The position numbers and the translations under genes are program-made. A stretch of 64,000 bases of DNA from an uncultured Aestuariivirga sp. (GTDB taxonomy: Bacteria; Pseudomonadota; Alphaproteobacteria; Rhizobiales; Aestuariivirgaceae): contig CAYMQH010000002.1 in assembly GCA_964392525.1 (NCBI GenBank), positions 37,992 through 101,991 of the forward strand, given 5' to 3'. The notes under the pieces are model-generated. The model was given only the letters and a program-made list of their open reading frames with translations. It was not told the origin of the DNA and ran no database searches. This document shows, in pieces, positions 1,580-27,560 of this stretch (within the stretch, counting starts at the first letter, position 1; each line of letters starts with the position of its first letter).

Positions 1580-1778
1580 ACGGGCCTCCAGAGATGGGCA
1601 GCGTGGCGTCCCGGCCGGGTCTTCCTGACCCGGTGAGAGGCCTTGCCTGCTGCCCCGCCTCTTACAGCCCTTCCGATCCCCGCAAAAGGGCCCGGCGGGC
1701 GTTGTCGGTCCTGCCAGACAAGAGAATCGGCCACTGTGGCGCGGCCGGACCTCCCGGTGTTGCGCGCCTCAGAGGCCT

Positions 1779-2138
1779 TCAGCTTCGGCCCAGATGCGTC
1801 TCGAGGTCGAGCCTCACGGCAACGCCCGCCATGGCGATGACCGAGACGCCGCCGCGTTCCTCGTCGGGAATGTCGAGTCCGCCCTTCACCACCTTCACCG
1901 TCACCTGGCCATGCGGCAGGCTGGCGGCGACGGCGGCCGTGTCCACCTTGTCGGGTTGCTGCACGCCGATCGTCACTTCGATCTGCATGGTCTTCGGCTC
2001 AACGCCGAGCGTTCGCAGGAACGGAAGGGACGAGTGGTGGATGCAGTCCTGCACGGCGCGAAGGGCCGCCTTGGTGTAATCGCCGCCATGCATGTCGTTG
2101 CCGTGGCCCATCTCAAGAATGATGCGTTTCAGGGCCAT
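1779..2138 (-). CDS. Lin0512-family protein (copy 2)
   Basis: N-terminal LKRIILEMGHGNDMHGGDYTKAA matches the GxGxDxHG motif; ATG overlaps the upstream TGA; GGAGA SD. Confidence 0.85.
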   Translation of the reverse strand: MALKRIILEMGHGNDMHGGDYTKAALRAVQDCIHHSSLPFLRTLGVEPKTMQIEVTIGVQQPDKVDTAAVAASLPHGQVTVKVVKGGLDIPDEERGGVSVIAMAGVAVRLDLETHLGRS

Positions 2139-2488
2139 CACTTTTTCTCCGGAATATCGAGGTAGACGATCGCTGCGGCATTGGCCATCAGGGTGAGGTT
2201 GGTGCCTTCGTCATTCATGATCTCGAGGCCACCCTCGACGACTTCGACGCTGGACTTGCCATAGGGGAGTGTTGCGGCGACTGCCGCCTTGTCAACCAGT
2301 TCGGGCTTGGGCACGCCGACCAGCACCTTCACATGCATGTCATGCGGCGACTGCCCGACGGCATTGGCGATGGTGAGTGAGTTGTGCCAGAGCGCATCCT
2401 TCAGCGCCCGGATCGCAGCCTTGGTGTAATCGGCCCCGGTCAGGTCCGTTCCCATGCCGATTTCGACGATCATGCGTTTGAGCGCCAT
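2138..2488 (-). CDS. Lin0512-family protein (copy 1)
   Basis: MALKRMIVEIGMGTDLTGADYTKAA; paralog of the next gene with the motif His replaced by Thr; start trimmed to ATG 2488 behind GGAGA. Confidence 0.85.
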   Translation of the reverse strand: MALKRMIVEIGMGTDLTGADYTKAAIRALKDALWHNSLTIANAVGQSPHDMHVKVLVGVPKPELVDKAAVAATLPYGKSSVEVVEGGLEIMNDEGTNLTLMANAAAIVYLDIPEKK

Positions 2489-2513
2489 GTGTTCTCCGAT
2501 CTTTCCGCGTCTC

Positions 2514-3356
2514 TCAAGCTGACAGGAATGCCGATACCTCGGCGTTGAAGCGGCGGGGGTTTTCAAAGAACATGAAGTGCCCGCCGCCTTCATGCTCCTC
2601 ATAGATGGATGCTGTGGCATTCGGGTTCACCGCGGCGATCCACTCCTGCGATTCAGCGCTGAAGATGCTCTTGCGGCCGCCGATCACCAGTGTGGGAAGG
2701 CGGCTCGCCATGATGACGTCCCGCCAGTCGTTGAGGCAATGATCGAACAGCAGTTCGGCGGCCGCCTCACGCGGCATCTTCAGGTTCTCGGCAGCGATCC
2801 AGCGCAGGTCCGCCTCCGGCAGGGCGCCGGTGAACATGCCCTTGAGGATGCCCATGGTGCCATCCACCGTTGCGGTGGCGCGCACCACGTCCGCGAAACC
2901 GGCAACCGACTGCACGTCCGGCAGCAGGCAGCCGTACTTCTTCTTTGTCGCGTCGTCCCAACCGGGAAGGGCGGCCACCATCGGCGCCTGGTCGACGATG
3001 ACCAGCCGCCGCAGCCGCTCCTCGCCGAACAGGTCGAGATAGCTCCAGATGATCGAACTGCCCATGGAGTGTCCGAGCACATCCACCTGGTCGAGGCCCA
3101 GAACATCGATTGCCTCCCTCAGGTCCTTGGCCAGCCGCTGGATGCGATGGCCTCCGGCCGCATTGGGACTGTCGCCATGACTGCGCATGTCGAGCGCGAT
3201 GACCCGCCGCGATTTCGCCAGATCGTCGATGTTGCGGCCGAACTCGGCCGCCGACTGCGACCAGCCGGGTATCATGATGAGCGGCGCCCCGCGTCCCGCC
3301 TCGATGGCGTTGAGGGTTGCGCCGCCCGGAAGCACGATGTGTCTGCCAGCCGTCAT
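2514..3356 (-). CDS. alpha/beta-fold hydrolase (perhydrolase/amidase-like)
   Basis: PGWSQS oxyanion region, DMRSHGDS, GHSMG nucleophile elbow, GHFMFFE catalytic His. Confidence 0.88.
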   Translation of the reverse strand: MTAGRHIVLPGGATLNAIEAGRGAPLIMIPGWSQSAAEFGRNIDDLAKSRRVIALDMRSHGDSPNAAGGHRIQRLAKDLREAIDVLGLDQVDVLGHSMGSSIIWSYLDLFGEERLRRLVIVDQAPMVAALPGWDDATKKKYGCLLPDVQSVAGFADVVRATATVDGTMGILKGMFTGALPEADLRWIAAENLKMPREAAAELLFDHCLNDWRDVIMASRLPTLVIGGRKSIFSAESQEWIAAVNPNATASIYEEHEGGGHFMFFENPRRFNAEVSAFLSA

Positions 3357-3372
3357 GGCCGCCTCCCCTGAC

Positions 3373-4137
3373 TCAGAGTTGCACGCCCTTGGTGAGCGCC
3401 CCGTCGATCACCAGATTGGTGCCCATGGTGAAGCTCGAGGCGGGGCTGGCGAGGAACACGATACCCTTGCCGATTTCCTCCGCCGTGGCCATGCGCCCCG
3501 TCGGGTTGAGGGCGAGGGCCTGCTGGAACAGGTCAGGCAGGTTCTTCTCGATATAGTGCCAGATGCCATCCTTGAAATACACGTTGCCGGGCGAGACGGA
3601 GTTCACGCGGATCAGCTTCGGGGCCAGCTTGTGGGCAAGGCCGTGCGCGTAGTGAATGAGTGCCGCCTTGAACGCACCATAGGCGGGCGAGGTGAAGTCG
3701 ATCTCTCGGCCCGACACCGACGAGACGATGACGATCGACGGCCACTTGGATGTTTCGAGATAGGGAAGCGAGGCATTGACGGCGCGAACCGTGTGCATCA
3801 TGTCGATGTCGAACTGGGCCTGCCACGAGGCTTCGGTGTCTTCCGCCGCAGCGAGCGCCGACACATTGGCGACGAGGATGTCGATGCCGCCCAGCGCCTC
3901 GGCGCTTGCCTTCACCCAGCCTTCGAGGGCGGCTTTGTTGCCCACGTCAATGGCTTGCCCGAAGGCCTTCACGCCTTTGCCCTTGAGCGATGCGACCGTG
4001 CTGTTCACCGTTCCTTCATCGCGCGCGCAGACCGAGACATTGGCGCCTTCGTCGGCGAACATGTCGGCAGCGCGCCGCCCGATGCCCTTGGTGCCGCCGG
4101 TGACCAGTACGTTCAAGCCCTTCAAACCGAGATCCAT
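3373..4137 (-). CDS. short-chain dehydrogenase/reductase
   Basis: TGGTKGIG, YGAFK (YxxxK), NSVSPG. Confidence 0.9.
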   Translation of the reverse strand: MDLGLKGLNVLVTGGTKGIGRRAADMFADEGANVSVCARDEGTVNSTVASLKGKGVKAFGQAIDVGNKAALEGWVKASAEALGGIDILVANVSALAAAEDTEASWQAQFDIDMMHTVRAVNASLPYLETSKWPSIVIVSSVSGREIDFTSPAYGAFKAALIHYAHGLAHKLAPKLIRVNSVSPGNVYFKDGIWHYIEKNLPDLFQQALALNPTGRMATAEEIGKGIVFLASPASSFTMGTNLVIDGALTKGVQL

Positions 4138-4148
4138 TTTCCGTCTCC

Positions 4149-5156
4149 CTATTGCTGAGTGTTTGCTGATTGTCCGAGGTAGGATTTCCTGATGGAGGCC
4201 CCGAGCGTGTATTTGGGGTCTACCATGTTGCCCACGCGCACGCGGCCGGCCTGCGTCAGCAGGAAATAGGCTTCGAGTTCGTCGAAGCCATAATCGGAGG
4301 CAAGCCAGCGGGTGAGCTCGCGATAGGCGATGCGGGCGGCGTCCTCCATCGGGCGCGCCGAACCGATTGTCATGATGAAGTCTTCCGTCTCAAGCCGCGG
4401 CCAGGAGATCTGCCAGTTCTTGATGAGGTCGACCTGGATGGTCGTCGTCGATGGCATTTCGACAGCCACGCCGCAGAGTTCGCCATCGCCCTGCCGCCCG
4501 TGGCAATCGCCGAGATAGAGATAGGCATCCTTGTGCAGTACGGGGAAATAGACGACGGCGCCCGGCGCCACGTCCGGCAGGTCCATGTTGCCGCCCCAGT
4601 AGTCTGGCTGCAGCGACAGCACCGCCTCGATCAGCGGCGAGACGCCAAGCGTACCGATGAATGGTTCATAGGGCAGGGTGATGCGGTCGTTGAACTTCAC
4701 GCCCGCTTCGGTGACCTCGTATTTCATCACCCGCTCCGGCAGGGGCGGGTTCAGCATGGCCGTCTGGCCGTTGGAAACGAGGCCGCCGAATTCCGGGATC
4801 AGGGCAGAGGTGCCCACCGGCTGCGGCCCGCGCGGCAGGATCGACTTGATATGGACGCACAGGACATCCCCCGGCTCCGCCCCTTCGACCGCGATGGGGC
4901 CACACTGCGGGTTGACGAATGGCATGCGCAGCTTCTGCGAGGGGAGGTCTTTCTCGGTCCTGATGGCGCCGCCGAAGGCATCCTCCGTCTCGGCGATCAC
5001 CGTGTCGCCAGGGCGGATCGACAGAACCGGCTTGGCATAGGGACCATAGACATAGTGATACTCACCCTGCACGGCCTTGTTCAGCAGATGTGTCGTGCCG
5101 TCCCGCCCGCCTGAAACGGCCTTGCGCCCCATGTAGCTTTTCGTAAGCCAGCTCAT
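4149..5156 (-). CDS. acetamidase/formamidase family protein
   Basis: NPQCGPIAVEGAEPGD, PFIGTLGV, GGNMD, GDCHGRQGDGELCGVAVE; start trimmed to ATG 5156 behind GGAGA. Confidence 0.9.
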   Translation of the reverse strand: MSWLTKSYMGRKAVSGGRDGTTHLLNKAVQGEYHYVYGPYAKPVLSIRPGDTVIAETEDAFGGAIRTEKDLPSQKLRMPFVNPQCGPIAVEGAEPGDVLCVHIKSILPRGPQPVGTSALIPEFGGLVSNGQTAMLNPPLPERVMKYEVTEAGVKFNDRITLPYEPFIGTLGVSPLIEAVLSLQPDYWGGNMDLPDVAPGAVVYFPVLHKDAYLYLGDCHGRQGDGELCGVAVEMPSTTTIQVDLIKNWQISWPRLETEDFIMTIGSARPMEDAARIAYRELTRWLASDYGFDELEAYFLLTQAGRVRVGNMVDPKYTLGASIRKSYLGQSANTQQ

Positions 5157-5226
5157 CTTCTGTCGTTCTCCCTTTTGCAACTGCGAACATCTTGGCGCGG
5201 GCACGGGTCCGATCCCGGCGAAGCGA

Positions 5227-5242
5227 TGCAGAATACATGCCA
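5227..5242 (-). promoter_or_regulatory. sigma-54 (-24/-12) promoter of the amidase operon
   Basis: minus strand TGGCATGTATTCTGCA = GG-N10-GC, about 70 nt upstream of the amidase ATG. Confidence 0.75.
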
Positions 5243-5304
5243 TTGTGCACCGCAACGAGGTCTATGGTGATGGTGTTCCCTAAGCCCCCGGAGACAGCTT
5301 TGTT

Positions 5305-5335
5305 CTTGACATGGATTTTTTCAAGGACCGATAGT
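5305..5335 (+). promoter_or_regulatory. putative sigma-70 promoter of the activator gene
   Basis: TTGACA at 5306-5311 with GATAGT 18 nt downstream. Confidence 0.45.
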
Positions 5336-5359
5336 GTTGTCCACATCAGGAGGAAGCCC

Positions 5360-7309
5360 ATCTCTTCGGCGCAAAGCGATCACATCAACGAACTCATCCG
5401 TGTCGCTGAAGGCGACCCCACGGACCGTGATCCTCTGATCCTCGAATCCTGGCGGCGCTGCGTTGGAAATCATGGGCTGGACCCCTCTGTGATGCGCCCT
5501 GCCGTGATCGTCGAAGACCGCCGCCTGCGCGAGCATCGCGACGCGATGGAAGAGTTGCTGCGCACCGCGCGCTTCGGCGTCGAGGCCCTGTACCGGCATG
5601 TGACGGGGCTTGGATATGTGGTTCTCCTCACCGATCATCAGGGCATCACAGTCGATTACATCGGGGATGAATCGACAACGGACTATCTCCGGTCGGCCGG
5701 GCTCTATCTCGGGGCGGACTGGAACGAGGCGCGCGCCGGCACCAACGGCACGGGCACCTGCATCGCCACCGGCGAGTCGCTTACCGTTCACCAGTGCGAC
5801 CATTTCGACGCGACCCACATTCCGCTCACCTGCACCGTGGCACCGATCTTCGATCCGGCGGGAAACCTCGCAGCCGTCCTCGACATTTCGGCGCTCCGTT
5901 CGCCGCGCGAAAAATCCAGCCAGTTTCTGGCCCTGCAGATCGTCAGGAACTTCGCCCACCGGATCGAGACGGCCAATCTCATCCGCTCCTGCTCGCGCAA
6001 CTGGATCGTCAAGCTGACGACCAACCAGGCGCTGGCGGAAGTCGACATTGAATGCGTGCTGGTACTCGATTCCTCCGGCCGCATCGTAGGGTTCAACCTG
6101 TCGGGGCGGCAATTGCTGGCGCAGGAACTCAAGGTGGGCTGGCGGGACGCCGCCCGCTGCCTCGGCCGGCTTTTTTCCGATTTCTTCGACTGCGAGATCG
6201 ACGGCCTGACACGCTTCGTGGCGCCCAACGCCATCGAGCGCAATGTCGTGCGCCTCACGGCCTCCGGCCGCAGCCTGTTCATTCAGGTGGTGCCGCCCGC
6301 CACCATTCGCGTTCTGACCCCCACGCCTGCGCCGGAGGACAGCAAGCTGCCGCCCGCCCTGAAGGCCGTGGCGGGCGAGGAACCCTCGATCCAGCGGAGC
6401 CTGCGCAAGATTTCCCGCCTGCTCAACACCAACATGAGCATTCTGGTGAATGGCGAAACAGGCACCGGCAAGGAGTTTCTCGCCAAGGCCATTCACCTGT
6501 CCGGCGTGCGGGCGTCAGGCCCCTTCATTCCTGTCAATTGTGCGGCGCTGCCGGACAGCCTGATCGAAAGCGAGTTGTTCGGCTATGAGAGCGGTTCCTT
6601 CACCGGGGCGCTGGCCAAGGGCAAGAAGGGGCTGATCCGCGAGGCGCATGGCGGAACGCTGTTTCTTGACGAGATCGGCGACATGCCGCTCAGTTCCCAG
6701 ACACGCCTGCTGCGGGTGCTGGCCGAGCGCGAGGTGCTGCCCATCGGCGGTACGCGGCCGCATGCGGTCGATATGCGGGTGATTGCCGCCACCCACCGCG
6801 ATCTGCTCGCCATGGTGAAGAGCGGGGCCTTCCGGGAAGATTTGTATTTCCGGCTCAATGGCGCCGTCATCACGCTGCCGCCGCTGCGTGACCGCAGCGA
6901 CCTCGCTGCCCTCGTCGCGCGGCTGTTGGAAAGCCGCGCCTTCCCCGATGGCACGCCGCGCGCCATCTCGGCCAATGCCCTCGGTATTCTGGCCTCCCAC
7001 ACCTGGCCGGGGAACATCCGGGAGCTCGTCAACGTCATCGATTTTGCCTGTGCTGTGGCCAGCAACCCGGAAATCGCGGTCGATGATCTACCGGATGAGG
7101 TGTTCCGCCGCTCGCCGAACGAGGCGGGTTCGGCCATCGAAGAAGTCGCCGGGCGCGAGGGCCATCATGCCGCTGCCCTGCGTGAGGACCTGCGCCGCGC
7201 CGGCTGGAACATTTCCGCCGCCGCGCGCCTCTTGGGGGTAGACCGCACCACGCTGCACCGGCGCATGCGTAAGCTCGGCGTCACGCTGCCGCCGCGCATG
7301 CCGCAGTGA
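5360..7309 (+). CDS. acoR: GAF + AAA+ + Fis-HTH sigma-54-dependent activator (AcoR type); start uncertain (ATC 5360 or ATG 5270)
   Basis: SWRRC..GTNGTGT GAF domain, GETGTGKE Walker A, GSFTGA loop, LFLDEIGD, C-terminal NISAAARLLGVDRTTLHRRM; adjacent to acoXABC. Confidence 0.88.
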   Translation: MSSAQSDHINELIRVAEGDPTDRDPLILESWRRCVGNHGLDPSVMRPAVIVEDRRLREHRDAMEELLRTARFGVEALYRHVTGLGYVVLLTDHQGITVDYIGDESTTDYLRSAGLYLGADWNEARAGTNGTGTCIATGESLTVHQCDHFDATHIPLTCTVAPIFDPAGNLAAVLDISALRSPREKSSQFLALQIVRNFAHRIETANLIRSCSRNWIVKLTTNQALAEVDIECVLVLDSSGRIVGFNLSGRQLLAQELKVGWRDAARCLGRLFSDFFDCEIDGLTRFVAPNAIERNVVRLTASGRSLFIQVVPPATIRVLTPTPAPEDSKLPPALKAVAGEEPSIQRSLRKISRLLNTNMSILVNGETGTGKEFLAKAIHLSGVRASGPFIPVNCAALPDSLIESELFGYESGSFTGALAKGKKGLIREAHGGTLFLDEIGDMPLSSQTRLLRVLAEREVLPIGGTRPHAVDMRVIAATHRDLLAMVKSGAFREDLYFRLNGAVITLPPLRDRSDLAALVARLLESRAFPDGTPRAISANALGILASHTWPGNIRELVNVIDFACAVASNPEIAVDDLPDEVFRRSPNEAGSAIEEVAGREGHHAAALREDLRRAGWNISAAARLLGVDRTTLHRRMRKLGVTLPPRMPQ

Positions 7310-7354
7310 TGTGGCAGGTGTGGCGCCACATCTGTGGCACACGCCGCCACAGAT
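7308..7354. promoter_or_regulatory. candidate upstream activator sequences
   Basis: nested inverted repeats GATGTGGC-N9-GCCACATC, TGTGGCGCCACA and ATCTGTGGC-N7-GCCACAGAT, 95-140 nt upstream of the -24/-12 site. Confidence 0.6.
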
Positions 7355-7447
7355 CAGATATCCCGGTAGGGACGTTTCGCGGATGCACAAAAATCCTGTT
7401 GCGCGTCTTTTCTCGAAAACAGCCATTTAACTGCTGCAGTGCGCAGT

Positions 7448-7462
7448 TGGCACGTAACTTGC
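7448..7462 (+). promoter_or_regulatory. sigma-54 (-24/-12) promoter of the aco operon
   Basis: TGGCACGTAACTTGC, near-perfect consensus 40 nt before acoX. Confidence 0.87.
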
Positions 7463-7502
7463 GAATATCCTGCCAAGTGCTTTTCAAGAGACATGGGTTC
7501 AC

Positions 7503-8534
7503 ATGGGAAAGTCCATCGGCATCATCGCCAATCCAGTTTCAGCGCGTGACATCCGCCGCGTGATCGCCAATGCGACGGCACTGCAGATCACCGACCGCGC
7601 CAACATCGTGTTGCGGGTCCTGTCCTGCGTGAAGGCGTGCGGGGTAGACCATGTTTACATGATGCCGGAGAATGGCGGCATTCGGCATCATGTGCGCCGC
7701 GGCATCGACCGGGCGGTGAATCAGGGGCTGAAGCATTTCCCCGAGATCGAATATCTCGATTACAAGATCTCCGGCACGGTTGAGGACACGCTCAAGGCCT
7801 CCCGCATGATGAAGGAGAAGGGTGTCTCCGCCATAGTGGTGCTGGGCGGCGATGGCACCCACCGCGCCGTGGTGACGGCCTGCGGCGATGTGCCGATCGC
7901 CGGCATCTCAACGGGCACCAACAATGCATTCCCCGAGCACCGCGAACCGACCATCACGGGCCTTGCCGTTGGCCTTGCAGTGATGGGCAGGGTGCCGCCG
8001 GAACATGCCTTCCTGCCCAACAAGGAAATCGTCGTCCGCGTCAACGGCCATGAGGAGATCGCCCTGGTCGATGTGGCGGTCGTCACCGAGCGCTACATCG
8101 GCGCCCGGGCGCTGTGGCGCACCGAGACGTTCCGCGAATTGTTCGTCACCTTTGCTGACCCGGAAGTGATCGGCATGTCGGCGATTGCCGGGCTCCTGAC
8201 GCCGGTGACACGGCTTGATCCCGGCGGACTGCATGTGCGCCTCGCACCCGAAGATGAAGCCAGCATCGTGCTCGATACGCCGATTGCACCGGGCTACATG
8301 CGCGGCATCGGCATCCGCGACTATATGCCGATGCAGCCAAACGTGAAGTACCGGCCCTCGATCACCGATGGCTCGATCGCGCTCGACGGCGAGCGCGAAC
8401 TCTCCTTCACGCGTGACGACGATGTGTCGATCGAGCTCATCCCCAATGCCTTCAGGACCGTGAATGTGAGCGGCTGCATGCAGTATGCCTCGCGCCACGG
8501 GCTGATGCGCCTCACGCCAAAAACCAGACCTTAA
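7503..8534 (+). CDS. acoX: acetoin catabolism protein X (NAD-kinase-like)
   Basis: IIANPVSARDIRR, LGGDGTHR, STGTNNAFP, DGERE; position before acoA. Confidence 0.88.
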   Translation: MGKSIGIIANPVSARDIRRVIANATALQITDRANIVLRVLSCVKACGVDHVYMMPENGGIRHHVRRGIDRAVNQGLKHFPEIEYLDYKISGTVEDTLKASRMMKEKGVSAIVVLGGDGTHRAVVTACGDVPIAGISTGTNNAFPEHREPTITGLAVGLAVMGRVPPEHAFLPNKEIVVRVNGHEEIALVDVAVVTERYIGARALWRTETFRELFVTFADPEVIGMSAIAGLLTPVTRLDPGGLHVRLAPEDEASIVLDTPIAPGYMRGIGIRDYMPMQPNVKYRPSITDGSIALDGERELSFTRDDDVSIELIPNAFRTVNVSGCMQYASRHGLMRLTPKTRP

Positions 8535-8551
8535 ACCATGGGAGGACTTAT

Positions 8552-9550
8552 ATGACTGCTCCAAACAGCACCGCCGGGATATTCCCGCTGGACAAGCCAG
8601 GGCTCCTGAAGGCGTACCGTACCATGCGGACGATCCGTGAGTTCGAGGAACGCCTGCATGCCGATTTCGCCAAGGGCGACATCCCGGGCTTCGTGCATCT
8701 TTATGCGGGCGAGGAAGCCTCGGGCACCGGCATCATGATGCACCTAGAGGACAAGGACCGGATCGCCTCGACCCACCGCGGCCACGGGCACTGCATCGCA
8801 AAGGGCGTCGATCCTGAGGGCATGATGGCCGAAATCTACGGCAAGGTGACGGGCTCCTGCCGGGGCAAGGGCGGCTCGATGCACATCGCCGACCTGTCCA
8901 AGGGCATGATGGGGGCGAACGGCATTCTCGGTGCCGGAGCGCCATTGGTGTGCGGTGCGGCCCTTGCCGCCAAGTACCGCGGCGATGGCGCGGTGGCGAT
9001 CTGCTTCGTGGGAGACGGCGCCTCGAACCAGGGCACCTTCCTCGAAAGCCTGAACCTTGCGGCGGTGTGGAACCTGCCGGCGATTTTCGTGGTCGAGAAC
9101 AACGGCTACGCCGAATCGACGTCGCGCGATTACGCCGTGGCGGTCGATTCCTATGTGGACCGCGCGGCGGGCTTCGGCCTTCCCGGCGTCACCGTCGACG
9201 GCCTCGATTTCTTCGCGGTCTATGAAGCAGCCGGCGAAATCATCAAGCGGGCGCGCGAGGGCGGCGGCCCGGCGCTTCTCGAGTGCAAGATGATCCGCAT
9301 GTACGGCCACTTCGAGGGCGACCAGCAGACCTACCGTGCCAAGGGTGAACTCGAGGACATCCGCGCCAACAAGGACTGCATCAAGATGTTCGTGCAGCGC
9401 GTGACCGAGGCGGGCGTCATCAGCCGTGGCGAGCTCGACGCCATCGACCGAGAGGTGGTGAAGCAGATCCAGGATGCCGTGGCCTCCGCCAAGGCTGCGC
9501 CGCTGCCCACGGCGGCCGACCTCGTCACCGATGTTTATGTCAGCTACTGA
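8552..9550 (+). CDS. acoA: acetoin:DCPIP oxidoreductase alpha subunit (TPP-dependent E1 alpha)
   Basis: GFVHLYAGEEA, STHRGHGH, GDGASNQG..ENN TPP motif, YGHFEGD. Confidence 0.92.
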   Translation: MTAPNSTAGIFPLDKPGLLKAYRTMRTIREFEERLHADFAKGDIPGFVHLYAGEEASGTGIMMHLEDKDRIASTHRGHGHCIAKGVDPEGMMAEIYGKVTGSCRGKGGSMHIADLSKGMMGANGILGAGAPLVCGAALAAKYRGDGAVAICFVGDGASNQGTFLESLNLAAVWNLPAIFVVENNGYAESTSRDYAVAVDSYVDRAAGFGLPGVTVDGLDFFAVYEAAGEIIKRAREGGGPALLECKMIRMYGHFEGDQQTYRAKGELEDIRANKDCIKMFVQRVTEAGVISRGELDAIDREVVKQIQDAVASAKAAPLPTAADLVTDVYVSY

Positions 9551-9570
9551 TCTGAGGGAGAGATAAGCAC

Positions 9571-10578
9571 ATGGCACGCAAGATCAGCATGCGCCAGGCG
9601 ATCAACGAGGCGCTCGACCAGGAAATGGCCCGTGATCCGTCAGTGATCGTGATGGGTGAGGACATCGTCGGCGGCGCCGGCGGCGAAGGTGAGGAAGATG
9701 CATGGGGTGGCGTCCTTGGCGTCACCAAGGGGCTTCATGCCAAGCACCGCGGCAAGCTGCTCGACACGCCGCTCTCCGAGTCGGCCTATATCGGTGCGGC
9801 GATCGGCGCTGCGGCCTGCGGCATGCGCCCCGTGGCGGAGCTGATGTTCCTCGACTTCATGGGCGTCTGCTTCGACCAGATCTTCAACCAGGCCGCCAAG
9901 TTCAAGTATATGTTCGGCGGCAAGGCCGAAACACCCGTGGTCATCCGCGCCATGGTGGGTGCGGGCTTCCGTGCGGCCGCCCAGCACAGCCAGATGCTCA
10001 CACCGCTCTTCGTGCACATACCGGGTCTCAAGGTGGTGTGCCCGTCCAACGCCTATGACGCCAAGGGCCTTCTGATCCAGTCGATCCGCGACAATGATCC
10101 GGTGATCTTCTGCGAACACAAGAACCTCTACGGCCTCGAGACCGACGTTCCGGCGGAATCCTACGCCATTCCGTTCGGCGAGGCCAATGTGGTGCGCGAC
10201 GGCAAGCACGTCACCATCGTGACCTATGGCATGATGGTACACCGCGCGATGGACGCCGCCGCAGCTCTGGCCAAGCAGGGCGTGGAGTGCGAGGTGATTG
10301 ATCTGCGCACCCTGTCGCCCATCGACTGGGATACGGTGATCGATTCCGCCGAGCGTACCGGCCATGTGGTCTGCGTGGACGAGGCGAACCCGCGCTGCTC
10401 GATCGCGGCCGACGTCTCCGCCATGCTGAGCCAGGAATGCTTCAAGGCCTTGAAGGGCCCGATCCAGATGGTGACGCCGCCGCACACGCCGGTGCCGTTC
10501 TCGCCGGTGCTGGAAGACCTGTACATCCCCTCGGCCGACGCCATCGTGAAGGCCGCGAACAAGTCGATGGGACGCTGA
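9571..10578 (+). CDS. acoB: acetoin:DCPIP oxidoreductase beta subunit (E1 beta)
   Basis: DTPLSE, ELMFLDF, AAAQHSQ, DLRTLSP. Confidence 0.92.
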   Translation: MARKISMRQAINEALDQEMARDPSVIVMGEDIVGGAGGEGEEDAWGGVLGVTKGLHAKHRGKLLDTPLSESAYIGAAIGAAACGMRPVAELMFLDFMGVCFDQIFNQAAKFKYMFGGKAETPVVIRAMVGAGFRAAAQHSQMLTPLFVHIPGLKVVCPSNAYDAKGLLIQSIRDNDPVIFCEHKNLYGLETDVPAESYAIPFGEANVVRDGKHVTIVTYGMMVHRAMDAAAALAKQGVECEVIDLRTLSPIDWDTVIDSAERTGHVVCVDEANPRCSIAADVSAMLSQECFKALKGPIQMVTPPHTPVPFSPVLEDLYIPSADAIVKAANKSMGR

Positions 10579-10611
10579 GAGACGCCTGACGCTTAGATTG
10601 AGGAATGAACT

Positions 10612-11724
10612 ATGACTGATACCCGTATCGTGCCGATCGTCATGCCCAAGTGGGGTCTCTCGATGAAAGAGGGAAAGGTGACGGGCTGGCTTCTGGAAGA
10701 TGGCTCGAAGATCAACCCCGGCGATGCGATCCTTGAGGTCGAGACCGACAAGATCGCGGGATCGGTCGAGGCGCATGAGGCCGGCGTGCTGCGAAGGCGC
10801 GTCGGCCAACCCGACACCATCTACCCGGTGAAGACGCTGCTCGGCGTCATCGCCGATCCATCCGTGCCGGACGCCGAGATCGACGCCTTCGTCGCGGCCT
10901 ATGTGACGCCATCCTCTGAGGAGGACGAGGAAGACCAGGGCCCGAAGTTCGAGTTCGCCGAGACATCGGCCGGTACGCTGCGCTATGCCAAGCGCGGCGA
11001 TGGCGATGAGACCGTCATCCTGATACATGGCTTTGGCGGCGATCTTGACAACTGGCTGTTCAACATCGACGCCCTCGGTGAGGCCGCCACCGTCTATGCG
11101 CTGGACCTGCCGGGCCATGGCCAGTCCACCAAGAAGCTGGAGAAGCCCAGCCTCAAGGCCATGACCGCGGCGCTGGCCTCCTTCATGGACAAGCTCGGCA
11201 TCGGCAAGGCGCATCTCGCGGGCCATTCGATGGGGGGCGCCATCGCCATGCAGATGGCGGCGGATCATCCGGAGAAGGTGAAGTCGCTGACGCTGATCTG
11301 CTCGGCGGGGCTCGGGCCCGACATTGGTTCTTATGTCGATGACTATGTCGCAGCCCAAGGCCGGAAAGACCTCAAACCCGTGCTTGAGCAGTTGTTCGCC
11401 GACAAGAACCTCGTCAGCCGCCAGTTGGTTGACGACGTGTTGAAGTACAAGCGGCTGGATGGTGTCGATTCGCTTCTGAAGGAACTCGCGGCATCGCTGT
11501 TCGCCGGGCGCAAGCAGCAGGATCAGCCGGCTGCTCAACTCGCGGGCAAGCTGCCGCCAGCGCTCGTCATCTGGGGCAAGGAGGATCAGATCATCCCCTC
11601 CGCCCATGCCGCCAACTTGCCGGGCGCCAAGGTCCATGTCCTCGAGGGGGCTGGCCACATGGTGTTCATGGAGAAGGCCAGCGATGTGAATAACCTTATC
11701 AAGGCTCACATCGCTGGCGCGTGA
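10612..11724 (+). CDS. acoC: AcoC: lipoyl domain + alpha/beta-hydrolase-fold acyltransferase
   Basis: MPKWGLSM..EVETDKIA lipoyl Lys; HGFGGD, GHSMGG and GHM hydrolase motifs. Confidence 0.92.
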   Translation: MTDTRIVPIVMPKWGLSMKEGKVTGWLLEDGSKINPGDAILEVETDKIAGSVEAHEAGVLRRRVGQPDTIYPVKTLLGVIADPSVPDAEIDAFVAAYVTPSSEEDEEDQGPKFEFAETSAGTLRYAKRGDGDETVILIHGFGGDLDNWLFNIDALGEAATVYALDLPGHGQSTKKLEKPSLKAMTAALASFMDKLGIGKAHLAGHSMGGAIAMQMAADHPEKVKSLTLICSAGLGPDIGSYVDDYVAAQGRKDLKPVLEQLFADKNLVSRQLVDDVLKYKRLDGVDSLLKELAASLFAGRKQQDQPAAQLAGKLPPALVIWGKEDQIIPSAHAANLPGAKVHVLEGAGHMVFMEKASDVNNLIKAHIAGA

Positions 11725-11877
11725 CCCAACTCATCCGATGCCGCTGACACGGCACAAGAAAGGAGGACCACAGATCACGGAAGCTTGAGACTTTCCGCGA
11801 GATACGGAGGCGCTGCAACGCCGCCGCATCTCCTGTTTGATCGACACAACAATGAAAATCAATGGGAGAAAACGCTG

Positions 11878-13407
11878 ATGTTTTCGATACCGAAGAATGC
11901 AGTTTACCAGCGGGTCAGCCGCCGCAAATTCCTTGAACTTGGCGGCGGTGCTGCCTCTGCGCTGGGCGTTGGCGGAATGACGCTGGGCCTGAGTTCCACC
12001 ATCACCCGCAACAAGGTGCAGGCCGCATCTTCAGATGATGCGAAGTGGAAGCAATACGCTGGCTCCAAGCTTGTCTTCATGTCCGAGAATACGCCGCCGT
12101 CCTTCGCTATCCGCGACAACATCAAGGCGTTCACCGACAAGACGGGCATCGAAGTCACCATTCTCACCGATGACCTGCCTGTGGTGCAGCAAAAGGTCGG
12201 TATCGACCTGCGCGGCGGCAAGGCGGACTATGTGCTGAACTATATTCAGGATAAGCCCATCGGCGCCCCGTTTGCCGATTTCTACGCCGATCTGACGCCA
12301 ATGTTCGGTGACGAGACCCTGCCGCAGGACCCGGAAGGCTATGGTGACGATGCGTGGTTCACCAACTTCCTCTCGGCGTGCGGCCGTTTCTACGACAAAG
12401 GCAAGATCGTCGCACTGCCCTATGATGCGGCCATTGCCTGCACTTTCTACCGGCAGGACCTGTTCGAGGCGAACTCCAAGGATTTCGAAGCTGAGTATGG
12501 CTATCGCCTCGAGTTCAACAAGGACTCGACCTGGCAGAACGTCATCGACATGGCGACCTTCTTCAAGAAGGCCAAGGAGTCGGGCAAGGATGTGCCCTAT
12601 GGCTATGCCCAGCACCAGGGCTCCTTCGCATGGACGACACAGCTTGACATTCAGCGCTTCCTGTTTGCCAACGGCCGCTGGATGGACTGGAACATCGACG
12701 ACGTTTATGGCTCCAAGGACCCGGGCAAGACCAACTGGGGCGATGAGCAGTCCATCTTCATGCTCGGCAAGTTCAAGGAACTGGCGGATGTCTGCCACCC
12801 CGACAATCTTGCGAATGGCACGCTGGAACTGAACACCGTCTATCAGTCCGGAAACATCGCGATGCAGACCCAGTATCACGAGTTTGCCGCCTCGATTGAA
12901 GACGAGTCGAAGTCCCGCGCCGCAGGCGGCAAGACAGCCTACGCACCCTGCCCGAAGGGCGATCCCAACTGGATCAAGAACGGCGGGCAGGCTGTCAACG
13001 GCACCAACTGCGGTATTGGCGGTATCGGCATCAACGGCAATGCCTCCGATGACCTCAAGCGCGCGGCTTACATCTTCGCGATCTGGTCGGTGTCGAAGGA
13101 CAACCAGTTCAACGTGCTGAAGGGCCTCGGCGGCACGCCCACTCGCAAGTCGGTTCTGGAGATCGAGGAAGTCAAGAAGGCCGAACAGCGTCCGACCACC
13201 ATGCCGAACGCGCTGACCTTCGATGTGGTCTACAACTACGGCATCAAGGATCCGAACTTCGTGTTGGGGCCCAAGATCCCCAATGCCAACGAGTACCACT
13301 CGATCCTTGCGGGCGAAGTGCAGAAGTGCCTGTCGAACGAGCAGAGCCCGGAAGAGGCCGCCAAGTCGATCCAGACACAGCTCGATGAGCTGAACGGCGC
13401 GGGCTGA
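11878..13407 (+). CDS. CUT1 (sugar-type) ABC transporter substrate-binding protein with Tat signal
   Basis: SRRKFL twin-arginine motif, LPYD..FYRQDLF; first gene of the ABC set; ATG 11878 behind GGAGA. Confidence 0.85.
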   Translation: MFSIPKNAVYQRVSRRKFLELGGGAASALGVGGMTLGLSSTITRNKVQAASSDDAKWKQYAGSKLVFMSENTPPSFAIRDNIKAFTDKTGIEVTILTDDLPVVQQKVGIDLRGGKADYVLNYIQDKPIGAPFADFYADLTPMFGDETLPQDPEGYGDDAWFTNFLSACGRFYDKGKIVALPYDAAIACTFYRQDLFEANSKDFEAEYGYRLEFNKDSTWQNVIDMATFFKKAKESGKDVPYGYAQHQGSFAWTTQLDIQRFLFANGRWMDWNIDDVYGSKDPGKTNWGDEQSIFMLGKFKELADVCHPDNLANGTLELNTVYQSGNIAMQTQYHEFAASIEDESKSRAAGGKTAYAPCPKGDPNWIKNGGQAVNGTNCGIGGIGINGNASDDLKRAAYIFAIWSVSKDNQFNVLKGLGGTPTRKSVLEIEEVKKAEQRPTTMPNALTFDVVYNYGIKDPNFVLGPKIPNANEYHSILAGEVQKCLSNEQSPEEAAKSIQTQLDELNGAG

Positions 13408-13425
13408 CCGGCCCGCACCCGACAC

Positions 13426-13451
13426 GCCGGCGGCCAGTACTGGCCGCCGGC
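13426..13451. repeat. perfect 26-bp palindrome after the binding-protein gene
   Basis: GCCGGCGGCCAG-TA-CTGGCCGCCGGC; typical intercistronic stem-loop of ABC operons. Confidence 0.7.
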
Positions 13452-13480
13452 ACCCCTCCCTTCAACCATCGAGCGAGCCG

Positions 13481-14491
13481 ATGACTGACGCCACCATGCC
13501 TCATGCCGCCGGGCGATCCGCGGGAAGCCAGAACAATCTGGACCTGTTCCGCGTCCGCCAGATACCAGACAGTGTCGAGTCCCGCCCCGCAACAACGCTT
13601 GGCGCGGAACTGCCCTCGGTCAATCCACCGGCTTCGAAGGCCTATTACTTCTGGCTCATGGCTCCGGCCATTCTGGTGCTTGCCTTCATATCGATCTACC
13701 CGTTCTTCTGGATGATCTACATGAGCCTCCATGATGTGGATATCGGCCACATCGAATGGAACAACTTCGCCAACTTCACCAGGCTCGCTTCCGATACGCG
13801 CTTCCTGATGGGCTGGGTGCTGCTGATCCAGTACAGCGCCATGTGCCTGTTCCTGCAGATCGTCATCGGCGTGTTCCTGGCCCTGGCCCTCAACCGCTCA
13901 CGCTATGAGAAGGTGCTGGTCACCACATTGCTGATGCCCATGATGATGGCCCCGCTGGTAGCCGGCATGGTGTGGTACTTTCTCTATAACGGCACTTTCG
14001 GCTGGTATCACTGGCTGCTGCAAAGCCTCGGCATCCTTGGCCCCAAGTCCATTCTGGCCAGTGGCAGCACTGCCATGATCGGGCTCGTGCTCGTCGACGT
14101 CTGGCAGTGGACGCCGCTCATCACGCTCATCACGCTCGCTGGCCTGAAGCGCGTGCCGCAGGACCAGCTCGAGGCCAACATGGTGGACGGTGCCTCGCCC
14201 TTCCGCAACTTCATCTCTGTGACGCTCCCGAACCTCTATCCGGTGCTGCTGATCGCCATCATGCTCCGCTTCATGGACAATTTCCGCTTCATCGACTCGG
14301 TGCTGGTGCTCACCGGCGGCGGCCCCGGCAATGCGACGAAGATCCTGCCCGTCTATCTCTTCGAGGTGTCGTTCAAGTTCTTCAAGCTGGGGCGGGGTGC
14401 CGCGATTGCCCTCATCCTCCTCATCGTCACCATCATTCTCGGAATGCTCCTGGTCCGTATCTTCGACCGCCAGCAGCCCAGAAAGGGGTAA
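13481..14491 (+). CDS. carbohydrate ABC transporter permease
   Basis: multiple TM segments, DVWQWTP, EANMVDGAS EAA loop. Confidence 0.9.
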   Translation: MTDATMPHAAGRSAGSQNNLDLFRVRQIPDSVESRPATTLGAELPSVNPPASKAYYFWLMAPAILVLAFISIYPFFWMIYMSLHDVDIGHIEWNNFANFTRLASDTRFLMGWVLLIQYSAMCLFLQIVIGVFLALALNRSRYEKVLVTTLLMPMMMAPLVAGMVWYFLYNGTFGWYHWLLQSLGILGPKSILASGSTAMIGLVLVDVWQWTPLITLITLAGLKRVPQDQLEANMVDGASPFRNFISVTLPNLYPVLLIAIMLRFMDNFRFIDSVLVLTGGGPGNATKILPVYLFEVSFKFFKLGRGAAIALILLIVTIILGMLLVRIFDRQQPRKG

Positions 14492-14494
14492 GTC

Positions 14495-15373
14495 ATGGCT
14501 TCCCGCGACCTCATACAATACGAGACGCCGGCATCGAAGGCCTTCAGATGGTTCTCCATCGTATTCCTCGCCTTCTACGTGGTGTGGACGGTGCTGCCGC
14601 TGTTCATCATGTTCGTGTCCTCCTTCAAGGACCTGCTGGAAGCCTTCAAGCTTCCGGCGGTTGGGGACTGGGCAGGGGTAACAGTCTTCTTCGACTTCAC
14701 GCCGACGACGAAGCATTACTATGAACTCTTCGCCAATCTCGGCTTCTCAACCTATCTGTTCAACTCGCTGGTCGCGGCGGCGGGATCTGCCGTTGTATCG
14801 GTCATCCTCGGATCCATGTGCGCCTATTCCCTGTCGCGCATCGACTTCAAGGGCAAGAATGACCTGTTCTTCTGGATCATTTCGACTCGCATGGCACCCG
14901 TCGTCGCCGTGATGGTGCCGCTCTACTGGATCTTCCGGCAGCTTGAACTTGTCGGAACGCTGCCGGGCCTCATCCTTGCCTACACGACCTTCAATCTTCC
15001 CTTTGCGATCTGGATCCTCAAGGGCTTCTTCGACAATGTGCCCTATGCCATCGAGGAGGCCCAGATGGTGGATGGCGCAACCCGGCTGCAAGCGCTGCGC
15101 GCCATCCTGCCACTGGTGGCGCCCGGTATCGGCGCCTTCGTGGTGCTCTGCATCCTGTTCGCCTGGAACGACTATCTGTTCGCCGCGATCATCGGTTCGG
15201 GCGGCGCCAAGACGTTACCCGCGGCGACGCGCGAACTGGTGCAGCCGCAGAACATCCAGTGGGGGCAGATCATGGCGGCGGGCGTCGTGACGACGTTGCC
15301 CATGATGTTCCTGGGTCTCGTCATCCGGAAATATCTCGTCACCGGCCTCACCATGGGCGCGGTCAAGGAATAG
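14495..15373 (+). CDS. carbohydrate ABC transporter permease
   Basis: EEAQMVDGA EAA loop, FAWNDY, TM segments. Confidence 0.9.
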   Translation: MASRDLIQYETPASKAFRWFSIVFLAFYVVWTVLPLFIMFVSSFKDLLEAFKLPAVGDWAGVTVFFDFTPTTKHYYELFANLGFSTYLFNSLVAAAGSAVVSVILGSMCAYSLSRIDFKGKNDLFFWIISTRMAPVVAVMVPLYWIFRQLELVGTLPGLILAYTTFNLPFAIWILKGFFDNVPYAIEEAQMVDGATRLQALRAILPLVAPGIGAFVVLCILFAWNDYLFAAIIGSGGAKTLPAATRELVQPQNIQWGQIMAAGVVTTLPMMFLGLVIRKYLVTGLTMGAVKE

Positions 15374-15385
15374 CAGGAGCTGCAC

Positions 15386-16480
15386 ATGGCAAAGATATCC
15401 TTCAGGAACGTATGGAAGAAATACGGCGACATGCCCGCCGTCAAAGACCTCAACATCGAGTGCCCGGACGGCTCCTTCCTCTCCATCCTCGGCCCCTCGG
15501 GCTGCGGCAAGTCATCCACCATGCGCATGGTGGCCGGGCTTGAGCACATCTCCTCCGGACAGATCCTGTTCGACGAAAAGCCCGTCAATGATCTCGCCCC
15601 CAAGGACCGCGACGTGGCCATGGTGTTCGAGAATTATGCGCTCTATCCGCACAAGACGGTCTACGAAAACATGGCCAACCCACTCAAGCTGCGCGGCCAG
15701 GACAGCGCGCGCATCAAGGAACGCGTGACAGCGGCTGCGAAGCTTCTCGAGATTGCCCACCTGCTGGAGCGTCGTCCGCAGGAACTCTCCGGCGGCCAGA
15801 AGCAGCGCGTCGCCATCGGGCGCGCCATCGTGCGGGAACCCAACCTGTTCCTGTTTGATGAGCCCATCGCCCATCTCGACGCCAAGCTTCGCGCCCATAT
15901 GCGCGGCGAGATCAAGCATCTCCAGCGCACGCTCGGCACAACGATGATCTATGTGACGCATGATCAGCTCGAAGCCATGTCCATGGCTGACAGCATTGCC
16001 GTGATGTATGAGGGCGAACTCCAGCAGCTGGGCACACCGCGTGAGGTCTACAACCACCCGGTCAATGCCTGGGTCGCGGGCTTCGTCGGCGAACCCGCGA
16101 TGAACTTTGTCGATGTCGGCCTTGAGGAGAGGGCCGGTCGGACCCACTTCATGCACGGCAATTTCGCCATACCGGTGAGCGAGGACCAGCAGCGGCGCAT
16201 TTCCGCCGGGGCAAAGGCGAACACGCTGCGCATGGGCGTACGCCCCGACGCCCTGTCGATCTCCATGACGAAGCCGGCGGAACCGCATATCACTGGCAAG
16301 ATCTTCGTGACCGAACTGCTCGGCGGCGACATGATTGTCGATGTTGATCTCGATGATTGCCGCATCCGCGTGAAGACCTCAACCGAGTTCGAGGGGCTGG
16401 AGGGGCAACCCTGCTACATGACCGTCAACACCGCCAAGTGGCATGCCTTCTCGAAAGAGAATGGCAAGGCCTTGTTCTAG
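15386..16480 (+). CDS. MalK-like ABC transporter ATP-binding protein
   Basis: GPSGCGKS, LSGGQKQRVAIGRA, DEP, YVTHDQ, C-terminal TOBE-like region. Confidence 0.93.
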   Translation: MAKISFRNVWKKYGDMPAVKDLNIECPDGSFLSILGPSGCGKSSTMRMVAGLEHISSGQILFDEKPVNDLAPKDRDVAMVFENYALYPHKTVYENMANPLKLRGQDSARIKERVTAAAKLLEIAHLLERRPQELSGGQKQRVAIGRAIVREPNLFLFDEPIAHLDAKLRAHMRGEIKHLQRTLGTTMIYVTHDQLEAMSMADSIAVMYEGELQQLGTPREVYNHPVNAWVAGFVGEPAMNFVDVGLEERAGRTHFMHGNFAIPVSEDQQRRISAGAKANTLRMGVRPDALSISMTKPAEPHITGKIFVTELLGGDMIVDVDLDDCRIRVKTSTEFEGLEGQPCYMTVNTAKWHAFSKENGKALF

Positions 16481-16494
16481 ATTGGGAGGCCGCA

Positions 16495-16830
16495 ATGGCG
16501 GATGCGAAGGAAAAGCTTGAATTGATCAACGCCAGGCTGATGGGCCTGTTCAAGGCTGAAAAGCAGACGATGATGGCCTTCAACGGTCTGACCGTTGCTG
16601 CGACCCGCGCGGGGAAGATTTCCCCAGCCATCAAGGAGCTGACGGCGGTTGCCATCGCGGTGGCCAAGGGCTGTGAAGACTGCATCGTCTATCATGCGGC
16701 GGCGGCGAAGAAGCACGGCGCGACGCGCGAGGAACTGGCGGAAATGCTGGCTGTCGCTGTCGAGATGGCGGGTGGCCCCGGTGCCGTCTATGCCGCCAGA
16801 GCGGTGGAGGTGTTCGACCAGTTGCCCTGA
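16495..16830 (+). CDS. carboxymuconolactone decarboxylase/AhpD-like protein
   Basis: KELTAVAIAVAKGCEDC..YH..AAKKHGATREE..E with CxxC; GGAGG SD. Confidence 0.85.
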   Translation: MADAKEKLELINARLMGLFKAEKQTMMAFNGLTVAATRAGKISPAIKELTAVAIAVAKGCEDCIVYHAAAAKKHGATREELAEMLAVAVEMAGGPGAVYAARAVEVFDQLP

Positions 16831-23765: not shown

Positions 23766-23919
23766 GTGCCATTTACAATACGAAAGGATGGGCAATTTAC
23801 AACCCCTTCGGATGCCAAAAGGCTGGTTCTTGGAGTGTTTTCAAGTTTCAGCTACCCGGTCATTCTTTCCCCATGCGCACGGGACCCACATCCGGGCGAA
23901 AACAAAATGGGAGAACAAA

Positions 23920-25110: not shown

Positions 25111-25123
25111 GGAGGACACAAGC

Positions 25124-27207: not shown

Positions 27208-27215
27208 GGCGCATC

Positions 27216-27560
27216 ATGATCCATCCCCTCAGCATTGCGATGGAGGCGGGGCACAAGCAGTCGGCCGCAGGCCCGGTGACGATCGTCCCTGACCTGCGCT
27301 CCTACCGCTATGAACCCAAGCCCGGCCGGCTCTCGCCCATGCAGGATCTCGTCGTGCAACTCGTGTGCTGCGGCATGGCCGACAAGGAGATCGCCTTCCT
27401 TCTCGGCCTCAGCAGCGCCACCGTGAAGGCGCACATGTCGCGCGCCATCGCGGAGCTGGGGCTCTACCGCCGCCATCAGCTGGTGCGCTACGTGTTCGAG
27501 AACAACCTCTTCGATCCCGAGCGGGCGCAGGCCGAAATCCTCCGCCGCCGCTCTGCTTGA
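27216..27560 (+). CDS. small LuxR-type HTH protein
   Basis: LSPMQ..GMADKEIAFLLGLSSATVKAHMSRAIAELG; no sensor domain. Confidence 0.7.
   Translation: MIHPLSIAMEAGHKQSAAGPVTIVPDLRSYRYEPKPGRLSPMQDLVVQLVCCGMADKEIAFLLGLSSATVKAHMSRAIAELGLYRRHQLVRYVFENNLFDPERAQAEILRRRSA

Follow-up and report, generated by a model that had tools for sequence, protein, structure and literature searches.

In Cupriavidus necator H16 and Pseudomonas putida KT2440, acoXABC depends on sigma-54 and on the activator AcoR (PMC10107126); in both regulons the genes occur in the order acoX-acoA-acoB-acoC, AcoC combines lipoyl and α/β-hydrolase domains, a GG-N10-GC promoter lies 5' of acoX, AcoR is an AAA+ activator with a Fis-type helix-turn-helix (HTH), and the cluster contains no E3 gene. 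The same gene order, domain architecture, promoter type, and lack of an E3 gene are found in the DNA analyzed here, a 64,000-nucleotide stretch (64 kb; ‘the window’) from an uncultured Aestuariivirga sp. (contig CAYMQH010000002.1). The window differs from the two regulons in having a second sigma-54 promoter and a divergent accessory operon with a pair of Lin0512-family genes (linA and linB), in an aco operon that continues with genes for an ABC importer and an AhpD-like protein, and in lacking a butanediol dehydrogenase of the medium-chain dehydrogenase/reductase type. Our reading, to which we assign a probability of roughly 0.6, is that a freshwater Aestuariivirga-like alphaproteobacterium here has a divergent catabolic regulon of the acetoin type, in which an orthodox acoXABC operon is joined to an accessory operon centered on the Lin0512 pair. 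The aco arm itself is known; the new part is the differentiated LinA-LinB pair, which is recurrently tied to acoXABC, the AhpD-like gene, and the importer. Although aco clusters are well studied, we know of no role for acoX, for the small AhpD-like gene, or for the Lin0512 family.

The cluster on plasmid 1 of Paracoccus denitrificans PD1222 has the order acoXABC, a short-chain dehydrogenase/reductase (SDR) gene, a small CMD gene, an annotated 2,3-butanediol dehydrogenase gene, and acoR, with rpoN divergent. Its AcoX, AcoA, AcoB, and AcoC are 58, 77, 75, and 60% identical to those of the window, its CMD/AhpD-like protein is 61% identical, and its acoX has a sigma-54 promoter with a TGTGGC-N2-GCCACA palindrome upstream of it; however, it has neither a Lin0512 pair nor a CUT1 importer, and its SDR is unrelated (26% identity to the window SDR). 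When the cluster of Chelatococcus daeguensis is considered together with that of PD1222, the identities are 75–83% for AcoA/AcoB (77–80% for AcoA), 58–64% for AcoX, and 60–62% for AcoC.

The genes of the locus were called with Pfam and NCBIfam profiles:
1728-1747, minus strand: terminator-like hairpin, approximately 30 nt past the linB stop codon; the likely end of the left operon
1779-2138, minus strand: linB, Lin0512 family, 119 aa (PF09585, 113 bits)
2138-2488, minus strand: linA, Lin0512 paralog, 116 aa (PF09585, 112 bits)
2514-3356, minus strand: α/β-fold hydrolase, 280 aa (Pfam; no equivalog assignment)
3373-4137, minus strand: SDR, 254 aa (generic matches only)
4149-5156, minus strand: FmdA/AmdA-family amidase, 335 aa (PF03069, 113 bits; cut-off 27)
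5360-7309, plus strand: acoR-type sigma-54 activator, 649 aa (Sigma54_activat, 219 bits; AAA_lid_14; HTH_8)
7503-8534, plus strand: acoX, protein with an NAD-kinase/DAG-kinase fold (Pfam)
8552-9550, plus strand: acoA, thiamine pyrophosphate (TPP)-dependent E1 α (E1_dh, 350 bits)
9571-10578, plus strand: acoB, E1 β (Pfam and identity to aco clusters)
10612-11724, plus strand: acoC, acetyltransferase with lipoyl domain and α/β-hydrolase fold (NF011457, 473 bits; cut-off 307)
11878-13407, plus strand: solute-binding protein (SBP), 509 aa, with the twin-arginine signal SRRKFLELGG
13481-15373, plus strand: two CUT1-type permeases, UgpA/MalF-like and MalG-like (Pfam, NCBIfam)
15386-16480, plus strand: MalK/UgpC-type ATPase with an OB_MalK domain (Pfam, NCBIfam)
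16496-16830, plus strand: AhpD-like CMD protein, 111 aa (PF02627, 70 bits; TIGR00778, 55 bits)

All of the 15 genes named in a preliminary description of the window are present, with profile support, and its tightly coupled left operon is also found (spacings of 11, 16, and 25 nt and an overlap of 1 nt). The listed open reading frames (ORFs) start too far 5' for the amidase, acoR, SBP, linA, and AhpD-like genes; the amidase gene, as corrected, starts at 5156, past the left promoter. A cold-shock-like coding sequence starts at 17056, and we therefore regard the AhpD-like gene as the last of the right operon. As judged from its genes, the right arm is orthodox, an acetoin-dehydrogenase operon acoXABC of the AcoR/sigma-54 type: acoX, both E1 subunits, and the lipoyl/α/β-hydrolase AcoC are in the canonical order, and a -24/-12 element precedes acoX next to a gene for a bacterial enhancer-binding protein (bEBP) with a sigma-54 interaction domain and a Fis-type HTH. 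AcoX has no match among the solved structures in the PDB, and the locus, like the described clusters, has no E3 gene.

The LinA-LinB pair and its aco neighbors

Orthologs were surveyed in species-representative genomes, and the best 80 of 575 loci that encode relatives (labeled with L numbers) were compared; in 80/80 of these the two genes are in tandem, with linA first. In the window, the linA stop codon overlaps the linB start codon by 1 nt, and the proteins share 46% identity. Both are members of the Lin0512 family, with PF09585 scores above the cut-off of 23.4 bits and TIGR02058 scores of 70 (LinB) and 76 bits (LinA) against a cut-off of 56.85. LinB retains the family motif, GHGNDMHGGDYT, and matches the pattern GxGxDxHG (GHGNDMHG), with its histidine present in all 78 readable orthologs; the equivalent segment of LinA, GMGTDLTG, does not match, and the histidine (0/78) is replaced, in nearly all cases by threonine or arginine. 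LinA and LinB are two differentiated subunits that probably associate as a hetero-oligomer.

Both acoX and acoA are located within 10 kb of the Lin pair in 18 of the 80 loci, and aco genes, an ortholog of the AhpD-like gene, or an SBP of the window type are near the pair in 23/80, in at least six architectures; thus, the enrichment of Lin0512 pairs near aco genes, which the preliminary description had proposed as a check, is found in this lineage. As a rough estimate, approximately 1% of 20-kb stretches chosen at random from a 4-Mb genome would contain an aco cluster. The linked loci belong to Aestuariivirga-like and other Hyphomicrobiales and are arranged as follows:
L008-L014, L017: window type
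L010, L013: window type without the amidase gene, the promoter being directly before the SDR gene
L015, L025, L027: acoXABC directly divergent from linAB
L026: acoXABC-acoR divergent from linAB
L031: acoXABC divergent from amidase-SDR-linAB
L022, L024: linAB convergent with the AhpD-importer end
L018: AhpD-like gene divergent from linAB
L037, L044, L049, L053, L055: a single linA-linB-AhpD-acoXABC operon that faces the same, divergently placed importer (a more distant group)

From this variety of architectures we argue for selection on the proximity of the Lin and aco genes. One complete Aestuariivirga chromosome has two aco clusters, separated by approximately 94 kb, and a Lin pair accompanies each of them (L012 and L015). 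Two individual neighborhoods are also of note: in L027 (3504-5500), where acoXA is upstream, another E1 α/β pair, divergent and with 47 and 44% identity to AcoA and AcoB, comes after linAB; and in L005 (10388-12246; Aestuariivirga litoralis), a gene of the mandelate-racemase/muconate-lactonizing (MR/MLE) family and a GNAT acetyltransferase gene follow the Lin pair instead of aco. The Lin0512 genes that occur singly in Azospirillum and Listeria gave no further clue.

The model of LinB (pLDDT 87) superimposes on PDB 3C8L with a template-modeling (TM) score of 0.81, and a hidden Markov model search matches the same structure with an E-value of 4e-22. This structure, Npun_R1471 of Nostoc punctiforme, was deposited as an ‘FtsZ-like protein of unknown function’ of the Lin0512 family; it shares the family, the fold, and the histidine-containing motif (GMGIDQHG) with LinB, but it is the product of a single gene, whereas the window encodes two differentiated paralogs in an obligate tandem, one without the histidine. 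The predicted fold is that of the Bacillus chorismate mutase-like proteins, as in RidA, IspF, and the C-terminal domain of FtsZ, with TM scores of only 0.3–0.4 to these (0.28–0.43 for RidA, AroH chorismate mutase, and IspF). Profile searches gave zero matches of LinB to RidA/YjgF, AroH chorismate mutase, or IspF, and the match to the MR/MLE structure 3q45 is weak and at chance level (E-value 0.12). An IspF-like metal site in LinB was considered from the likeness of the motif GHGxDxH to the N-terminus of IspF and from the match to the IspF fold; there was no profile match, an hhalign comparison of LinB with a sequence of E. coli IspF entered by hand gave a probability of 4.8%, and we dropped the claim, retaining the metal site as no more than a lead. 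A literature search for Lin0512, TIGR02058, PF09585, or 3C8L found nothing, and ‘acetoin racemase’ was found only as a postulated activity.

The resemblance to RidA, chorismate mutase, and IspF, together with the wide distribution of the pair in Alphaproteobacteria with variable neighbors, would also fit a LinAB that is a RidA-like damage-control or small-molecule-binding protein recruited beside aco in one lineage. We regard this as doubtful: the TM scores to such proteins are only 0.3–0.4 with no profile-level match, and the perfectly conserved Asp/His motif in one subunit and the shared operon with the AhpD-like gene and acoXABC argue for a defined catalytic role. In our reading, LinAB would instead be a core accessory hetero-oligomeric enzyme with a chorismate mutase/RidA-like fold that may act on the acyloin, by isomerization of the enediol type or by racemization, or on a reactive intermediate of Aco turnover. 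In its most specific form, namely that LinA-LinB is an unrecognized heteromeric acyloin enzyme (e.g., the acetoin racemase, which has long been postulated but is not known to have been cloned, or an enediol tautomerase that supplies the correct isomer to AcoAB) and that the AhpD-like protein is the redox partner of the lipoyl arm of AcoC, the proposal is quite unlikely to be correct; if it were, it would provide the first activity for the Lin0512 family, which has several thousand proteins and a solved structure.

The linkage is the first functional lead for the family, and it gives a ‘conserved hypothetical’ protein a proposed role that can be tested, for which acetoin, butanediol, and diacetyl stereoisomers are the obvious substrates. 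The relatives with or without the amidase, SDR, hydrolase, or AcoR constitute a natural experiment that separates core from peripheral functions, and the locus indirectly gives the aco-associated AhpD-like protein a concrete, testable context as well.

Promoters and control of the two arms

The control elements are located in the two intergenic regions that flank acoR:
5176-5187, minus strand: palindrome TTCGCAGTTGCA, between the left promoter and the ribosome-binding site of the amidase gene; candidate operator common to the acoX control region
5227-5242, minus strand: sigma-54 -24/-12 promoter of the left operon, TGGCATGTATTCTGCA, with two mismatches to the consensus
5306-5335, plus strand: sigma-70-like acoR promoter, TTGACA, 18 nt, GATAGT (10/12), with a TGTCAAG block that is invariant in orthologs
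7319-7351, plus strand: two palindromes, TGTGGCGCCACA and TGTGGC-N7-GCCACA, approximately 100–130 nt upstream of the -24 element; candidate AcoR sites
7376-7387, plus strand: second copy of the common palindrome, TTCGCGGATGCA, upstream of the acoX promoter
7448-7462, plus strand: sigma-54 -24/-12 promoter of acoX, TGGCACGTAACTTGC, a perfect consensus

The acoX promoter, TGGCACGTAACTTGC, is the sole perfect sigma-54 consensus match in the 64 kb. Matches with up to one mismatch occur in the window at the level expected by chance (6 found, 7.4 expected), so TGGCATGTATTCTGCA is unremarkable alone; we therefore aligned both intergenic regions of nine orthologous loci (the window, L008-L014, and L017). 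In the left promoter, TGGCA and TGCA are invariant at the right spacing in all nine, in a region with a mean column identity of 60%, and the -24 and -12 elements of the acoX promoter are likewise invariant; both promoters of the preliminary description are thus found at the positions it gave, as conserved islands. The left promoter lies 65–75 nt 5' of the first start codon of the operon, including in L010 and L013 where the SDR gene is first and the amidase gene is missing.

The two control regions also share a 12-nt palindrome, TTCGCRGNTGCA, with two matches in the 64 kb (0.21 expected), one in each region (5176-5187 and 7376-7387). In relatives, it is kept 25–35 nt 5' of the ATG with which the left operon begins, be it that of the amidase, SDR, or linA gene; it follows the left promoter but precedes the right one. 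Its sequence is different from that of the AcoR-type palindrome, and a second DNA-binding factor may act at it. The two palindromes at 7319-7351 are conserved upstream of acoX in all of the orthologs and are the best candidates for AcoR binding sites.

On this evidence, co-regulation of the two arms is well supported by sequence comparison. The single bidirectional regulon of the preliminary description is borne out insofar as both promoters are conserved and share a rare palindrome; its dependence on AcoR at the left promoter is a different matter, because the AcoR-type palindromes are on the acoX side only, and we infer direct control by AcoR from adjacency and from the fact that no other activator is encoded in the locus. 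The metatranscriptome contigs of relatives (fragmentary, at least 88% identity) cover mainly conserved cores (the AAA+ domain, AcoAB, and the ABC ATPase) and include one LinA fragment.

AcoR was previously described as a GAF-AAA+ protein, of which the sigma-54 activator (AAA+) part stands; in the N-terminal region, Pfam detects no GAF domain at an E-value of 1 or lower and a PAS_4 domain right at its cut-off (23.5 bits). This sensor region is 43–56% identical to those of AcoR in the Paracoccus and Chelatococcus aco clusters. The acoR gene appears to start with a near-cognate ATC codon: in the start region (5348-5362), ATC follows a strong AGGAGG by 6–8 nt, both are conserved in the nine orthologs, the codons just past the ATC vary mainly at their third positions, and Paracoccus and Chelatococcus acoR have ATG at this position. 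Such a start would hold the level of the activator low. In the acoR-less loci L015 (9490-9510) and L031 (7670-7690), the TGTCAAG block (5304-5311 in the window), which reads TTGACA on the opposite strand and is the -35 element of the acoR promoter, is retained and faces acoX; this suggests that acoXABC came under the sigma-70 promoter of acoR when acoR was deleted.

In the mechanism that we propose, an acetoin-type inducer would activate AcoR, which, bound to the TGTGGC..GCCACA palindromes behind its own gene, would open the -24/-12 promoter of acoX. AcoAB would cleave the acyloin with TPP, and AcoC would pass the acetyl group via lipoate to CoA, yielding an aldehyde and acetyl-CoA. The locus encodes no activator other than AcoR, which, therefore, probably also activates the left promoter, acting at a distance or via an unrecognized site. 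The left arm would be an accessory operon with a conserved sigma-54 promoter of its own and the obligate LinA-LinB pair as its constant part.

Several observations weigh against this reading. The AcoR-type palindrome is absent from the left control region of every ortholog, the nearest being 2.1 kb away, and there is no recognizable sigma-54 promoter before linA in some of the acoR-less loci. Many of the linked loci come from close relatives and cannot be counted as independent. In Acetobacteraceae, Rhodospirillales, and others, the Lin pair stands alone, with no aco genes within 10 kb, so the pair is not intrinsically an Aco component; the distant pairs have no consistent neighbor, with luciferase-like monooxygenases, major facilitator superfamily transporters, and enoyl-CoA hydratases among those found. 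Conversely, none of 42 plasmid or chromid records that carry AcoX has a Lin pair, that is, Aco works without LinAB. No sequence-level tie of LinB to any enzyme of known activity was found, and no result shows that acetoin needs an ABC importer.

Some of these observations would be accommodated if the left operon were an independent nitrogen/amide-scavenging cassette under another activator (e.g., of the NtrC type), with the Lin-aco linkage as inherited synteny: the left promoter region has no AcoR-type palindrome, distant Lin pairs have no aco neighbors, the amidase-SDR module occurs in amide-utilization operons elsewhere (vide infra), and the window encodes a further sigma-54 activator, with a receiver domain (NtrC/NtrX type; 60801-62369), that is, a bEBP other than AcoR within the same 64 kb. 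However, synteny that is merely inherited would have had to outlast at least six rearrangements, including those that placed linAB within the aco operon or divergent from acoX without an amidase gene; the rare palindrome is common to both control regions; and each of two aco copies in one genome has its own Lin pair. An independent cassette is, therefore, unlikely.

Peripheral enzymes, importer, and surrounding genes

Three further enzymes are encoded in the left operon. The amidase is a member of the FmdA/AmdA family (a close solved homolog, PDB 5ubu, 430 bits, is uncharacterized), and its score against the formamidase FmdA equivalog, NF045496, is 82.9 bits (cut-off 500). The SDR has generic profile matches and no PDB match below 1e-30. 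Among solved structures, the hydrolase matches only generic epoxide hydrolases and esterases; its matches to the C-C hydrolases HsaD and BphD and to the hydrolase domain of AcoC are weak, far below the family cut-offs. The order amidase-SDR-hydrolase-linA-linB recurs in L007-L009, L011, L012, L014, L017, and L030; however, the amidase is absent in L010 and L013, the hydrolase is absent in L029 and L031 and present alone in L020-L023, and all three enzymes are absent in L015, L025-L027, and the L037 type, in which linAB is directly beside or within the aco operon. Across the loci, the three enzymes occur in every combination. As far as gene content can tell, the amidase, SDR, and hydrolase are interchangeable peripheral enzymes and not fixed steps of one pathway.

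This pattern bears on the pathway proposed in the preliminary description, in which an imported N-acylated or N-heterocycle-derived compound would be deacylated by the amidase and then the hydrolase, oxidized by the SDR, and converted by LinAB to an acyloin for cleavage by Aco. Five translationally tight genes behind one conserved sigma-54 promoter, in an order that recurs among relatives, are what such a pathway would predict. LinAB and aco remain together whereas each of the three enzymes can be gained or lost on its own, so ‘two deacylations, then Aco’ is not supported, and the close orthology of the aco genes to those of ordinary acetoin/butanediol clusters also counts against the proposed chemistry. 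The substrate class is in question as well: on plasmids of Palleronia, Paracoccus liaowanqingii, and Methylobacterium currus, an amidase-SDR pair that is 61–68% identical to that of the window ends AmiC/ANTAR and Urt-like ABC operons, a context that suggests small primary amides and not N-acyl compounds. These operons differ from the window in having regulation of the antiterminator type and a urea/amide-type importer, without aco, Lin0512, or sigma-54; the pair is thus a movable two-gene module of short-amide metabolism. The tpdA-E genes of Rhodococcus jostii TMP1 (PMC6099782), cited as a precedent, resemble the window in idea only, that is, an amide hydrolase and a ketoreductase that feed four-carbon acyloin chemistry; the window has no homolog of the ring-opening oxygenase, the amidase is dispensable in relatives, and no homology was established. 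We consider the amide-to-acyloin pathway very unlikely.

A different assignment would place the SDR and hydrolase, and possibly LinAB, in the classical 2,3-butanediol cycle. In this cycle, acetylacetoin is formed from diacetyl, and reduction followed by hydrolysis gives butanediol and acetate; to our knowledge, its genes have never been assigned. Here, AcoAB would make the acetylacetoin, the SDR would reduce it, and the hydrolase would act as the C-C hydrolase. An SDR-hydrolase-linAB unit behind a sigma-54 promoter without the amidase (L010 and L013) and the weak resemblance of the hydrolase to HsaD, BphD, and the AcoC hydrolase domain would be consistent with these roles, but the SDR and hydrolase matches are generic and far below family cut-offs and the SDR is co-conserved with the amidase in operons without aco; we regard this assignment as highly improbable.

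The AhpD-like protein and the importer belong to the aco arm. The former has a CMD domain and the CxxCxxxH motif (CEDCIVYH) of the AhpD-like family and matches 5dik with 75 bits; since a protein with 61% identity to it is encoded next to the annotated 2,3-butanediol dehydrogenase gene of the Paracoccus aco cluster, it is, by this comparison, a regular companion of alphaproteobacterial aco clusters and not a peculiarity of this locus. In mycobacteria, AhpD receives electrons from the lipoyl protein DlaT. The window protein shares the CMD/AhpD core and CxxCxxxH with mycobacterial AhpD, and its operon also encodes a lipoyl carrier, AcoC; it differs in being a single-domain protein of 111 aa with neither AhpC nor Lpd encoded nearby. 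By analogy with AhpD/DlaT, the CxxC protein probably exchanges electrons with the dihydrolipoyl arm of AcoC. The importer has the components of the CUT1 family, namely a MalK/UgpC-type ATPase with a C-terminal OB/TOBE domain, two MalFG/UgpAE-like permeases, and an SBP of the cluster-B type, which its signal predicts to be exported by the twin-arginine translocation pathway. The SBP is long for a CUT1 binding protein (509 aa), its profile match is weak (SBP_bac_8, E-value 2e-15), and it is distant from all solved SBPs (best PDB match, E-value 0.0017).

The window has a G+C content of approximately 63%, its protein and locus matches assign it to Aestuariivirga, a freshwater genus of Hyphomicrobiales, or to a close neighbor of that genus, and the metagenomes that contain sequence of the locus are aquatic, freshwater, and groundwater only. 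The left arm is flanked by hutH (41-1579), which is unrelated to the locus. Farther away, a serine-cycle-like set (23788-28560) encodes a class-V aminotransferase, an ATP-grasp ligase of the malate/succinate thiokinase type, followed by an ORF at 26320-27207, and an HpcH/malyl-CoA-lyase-like protein. A DXP-synthase-like TPP enzyme is encoded beside a flavin monooxygenase-like gene and a GFO/IDH/MocA oxidoreductase gene at 41528-43330. Between these regions, the genes at 31478-39276 encode an MttB-superfamily methyltransferase, two DAO+GCV_T dehydrogenases (dimethylglycine/sarcosine type), and a class-III aminotransferase and constitute a probable demethylation cluster for methylated amines of the glycine betaine type.

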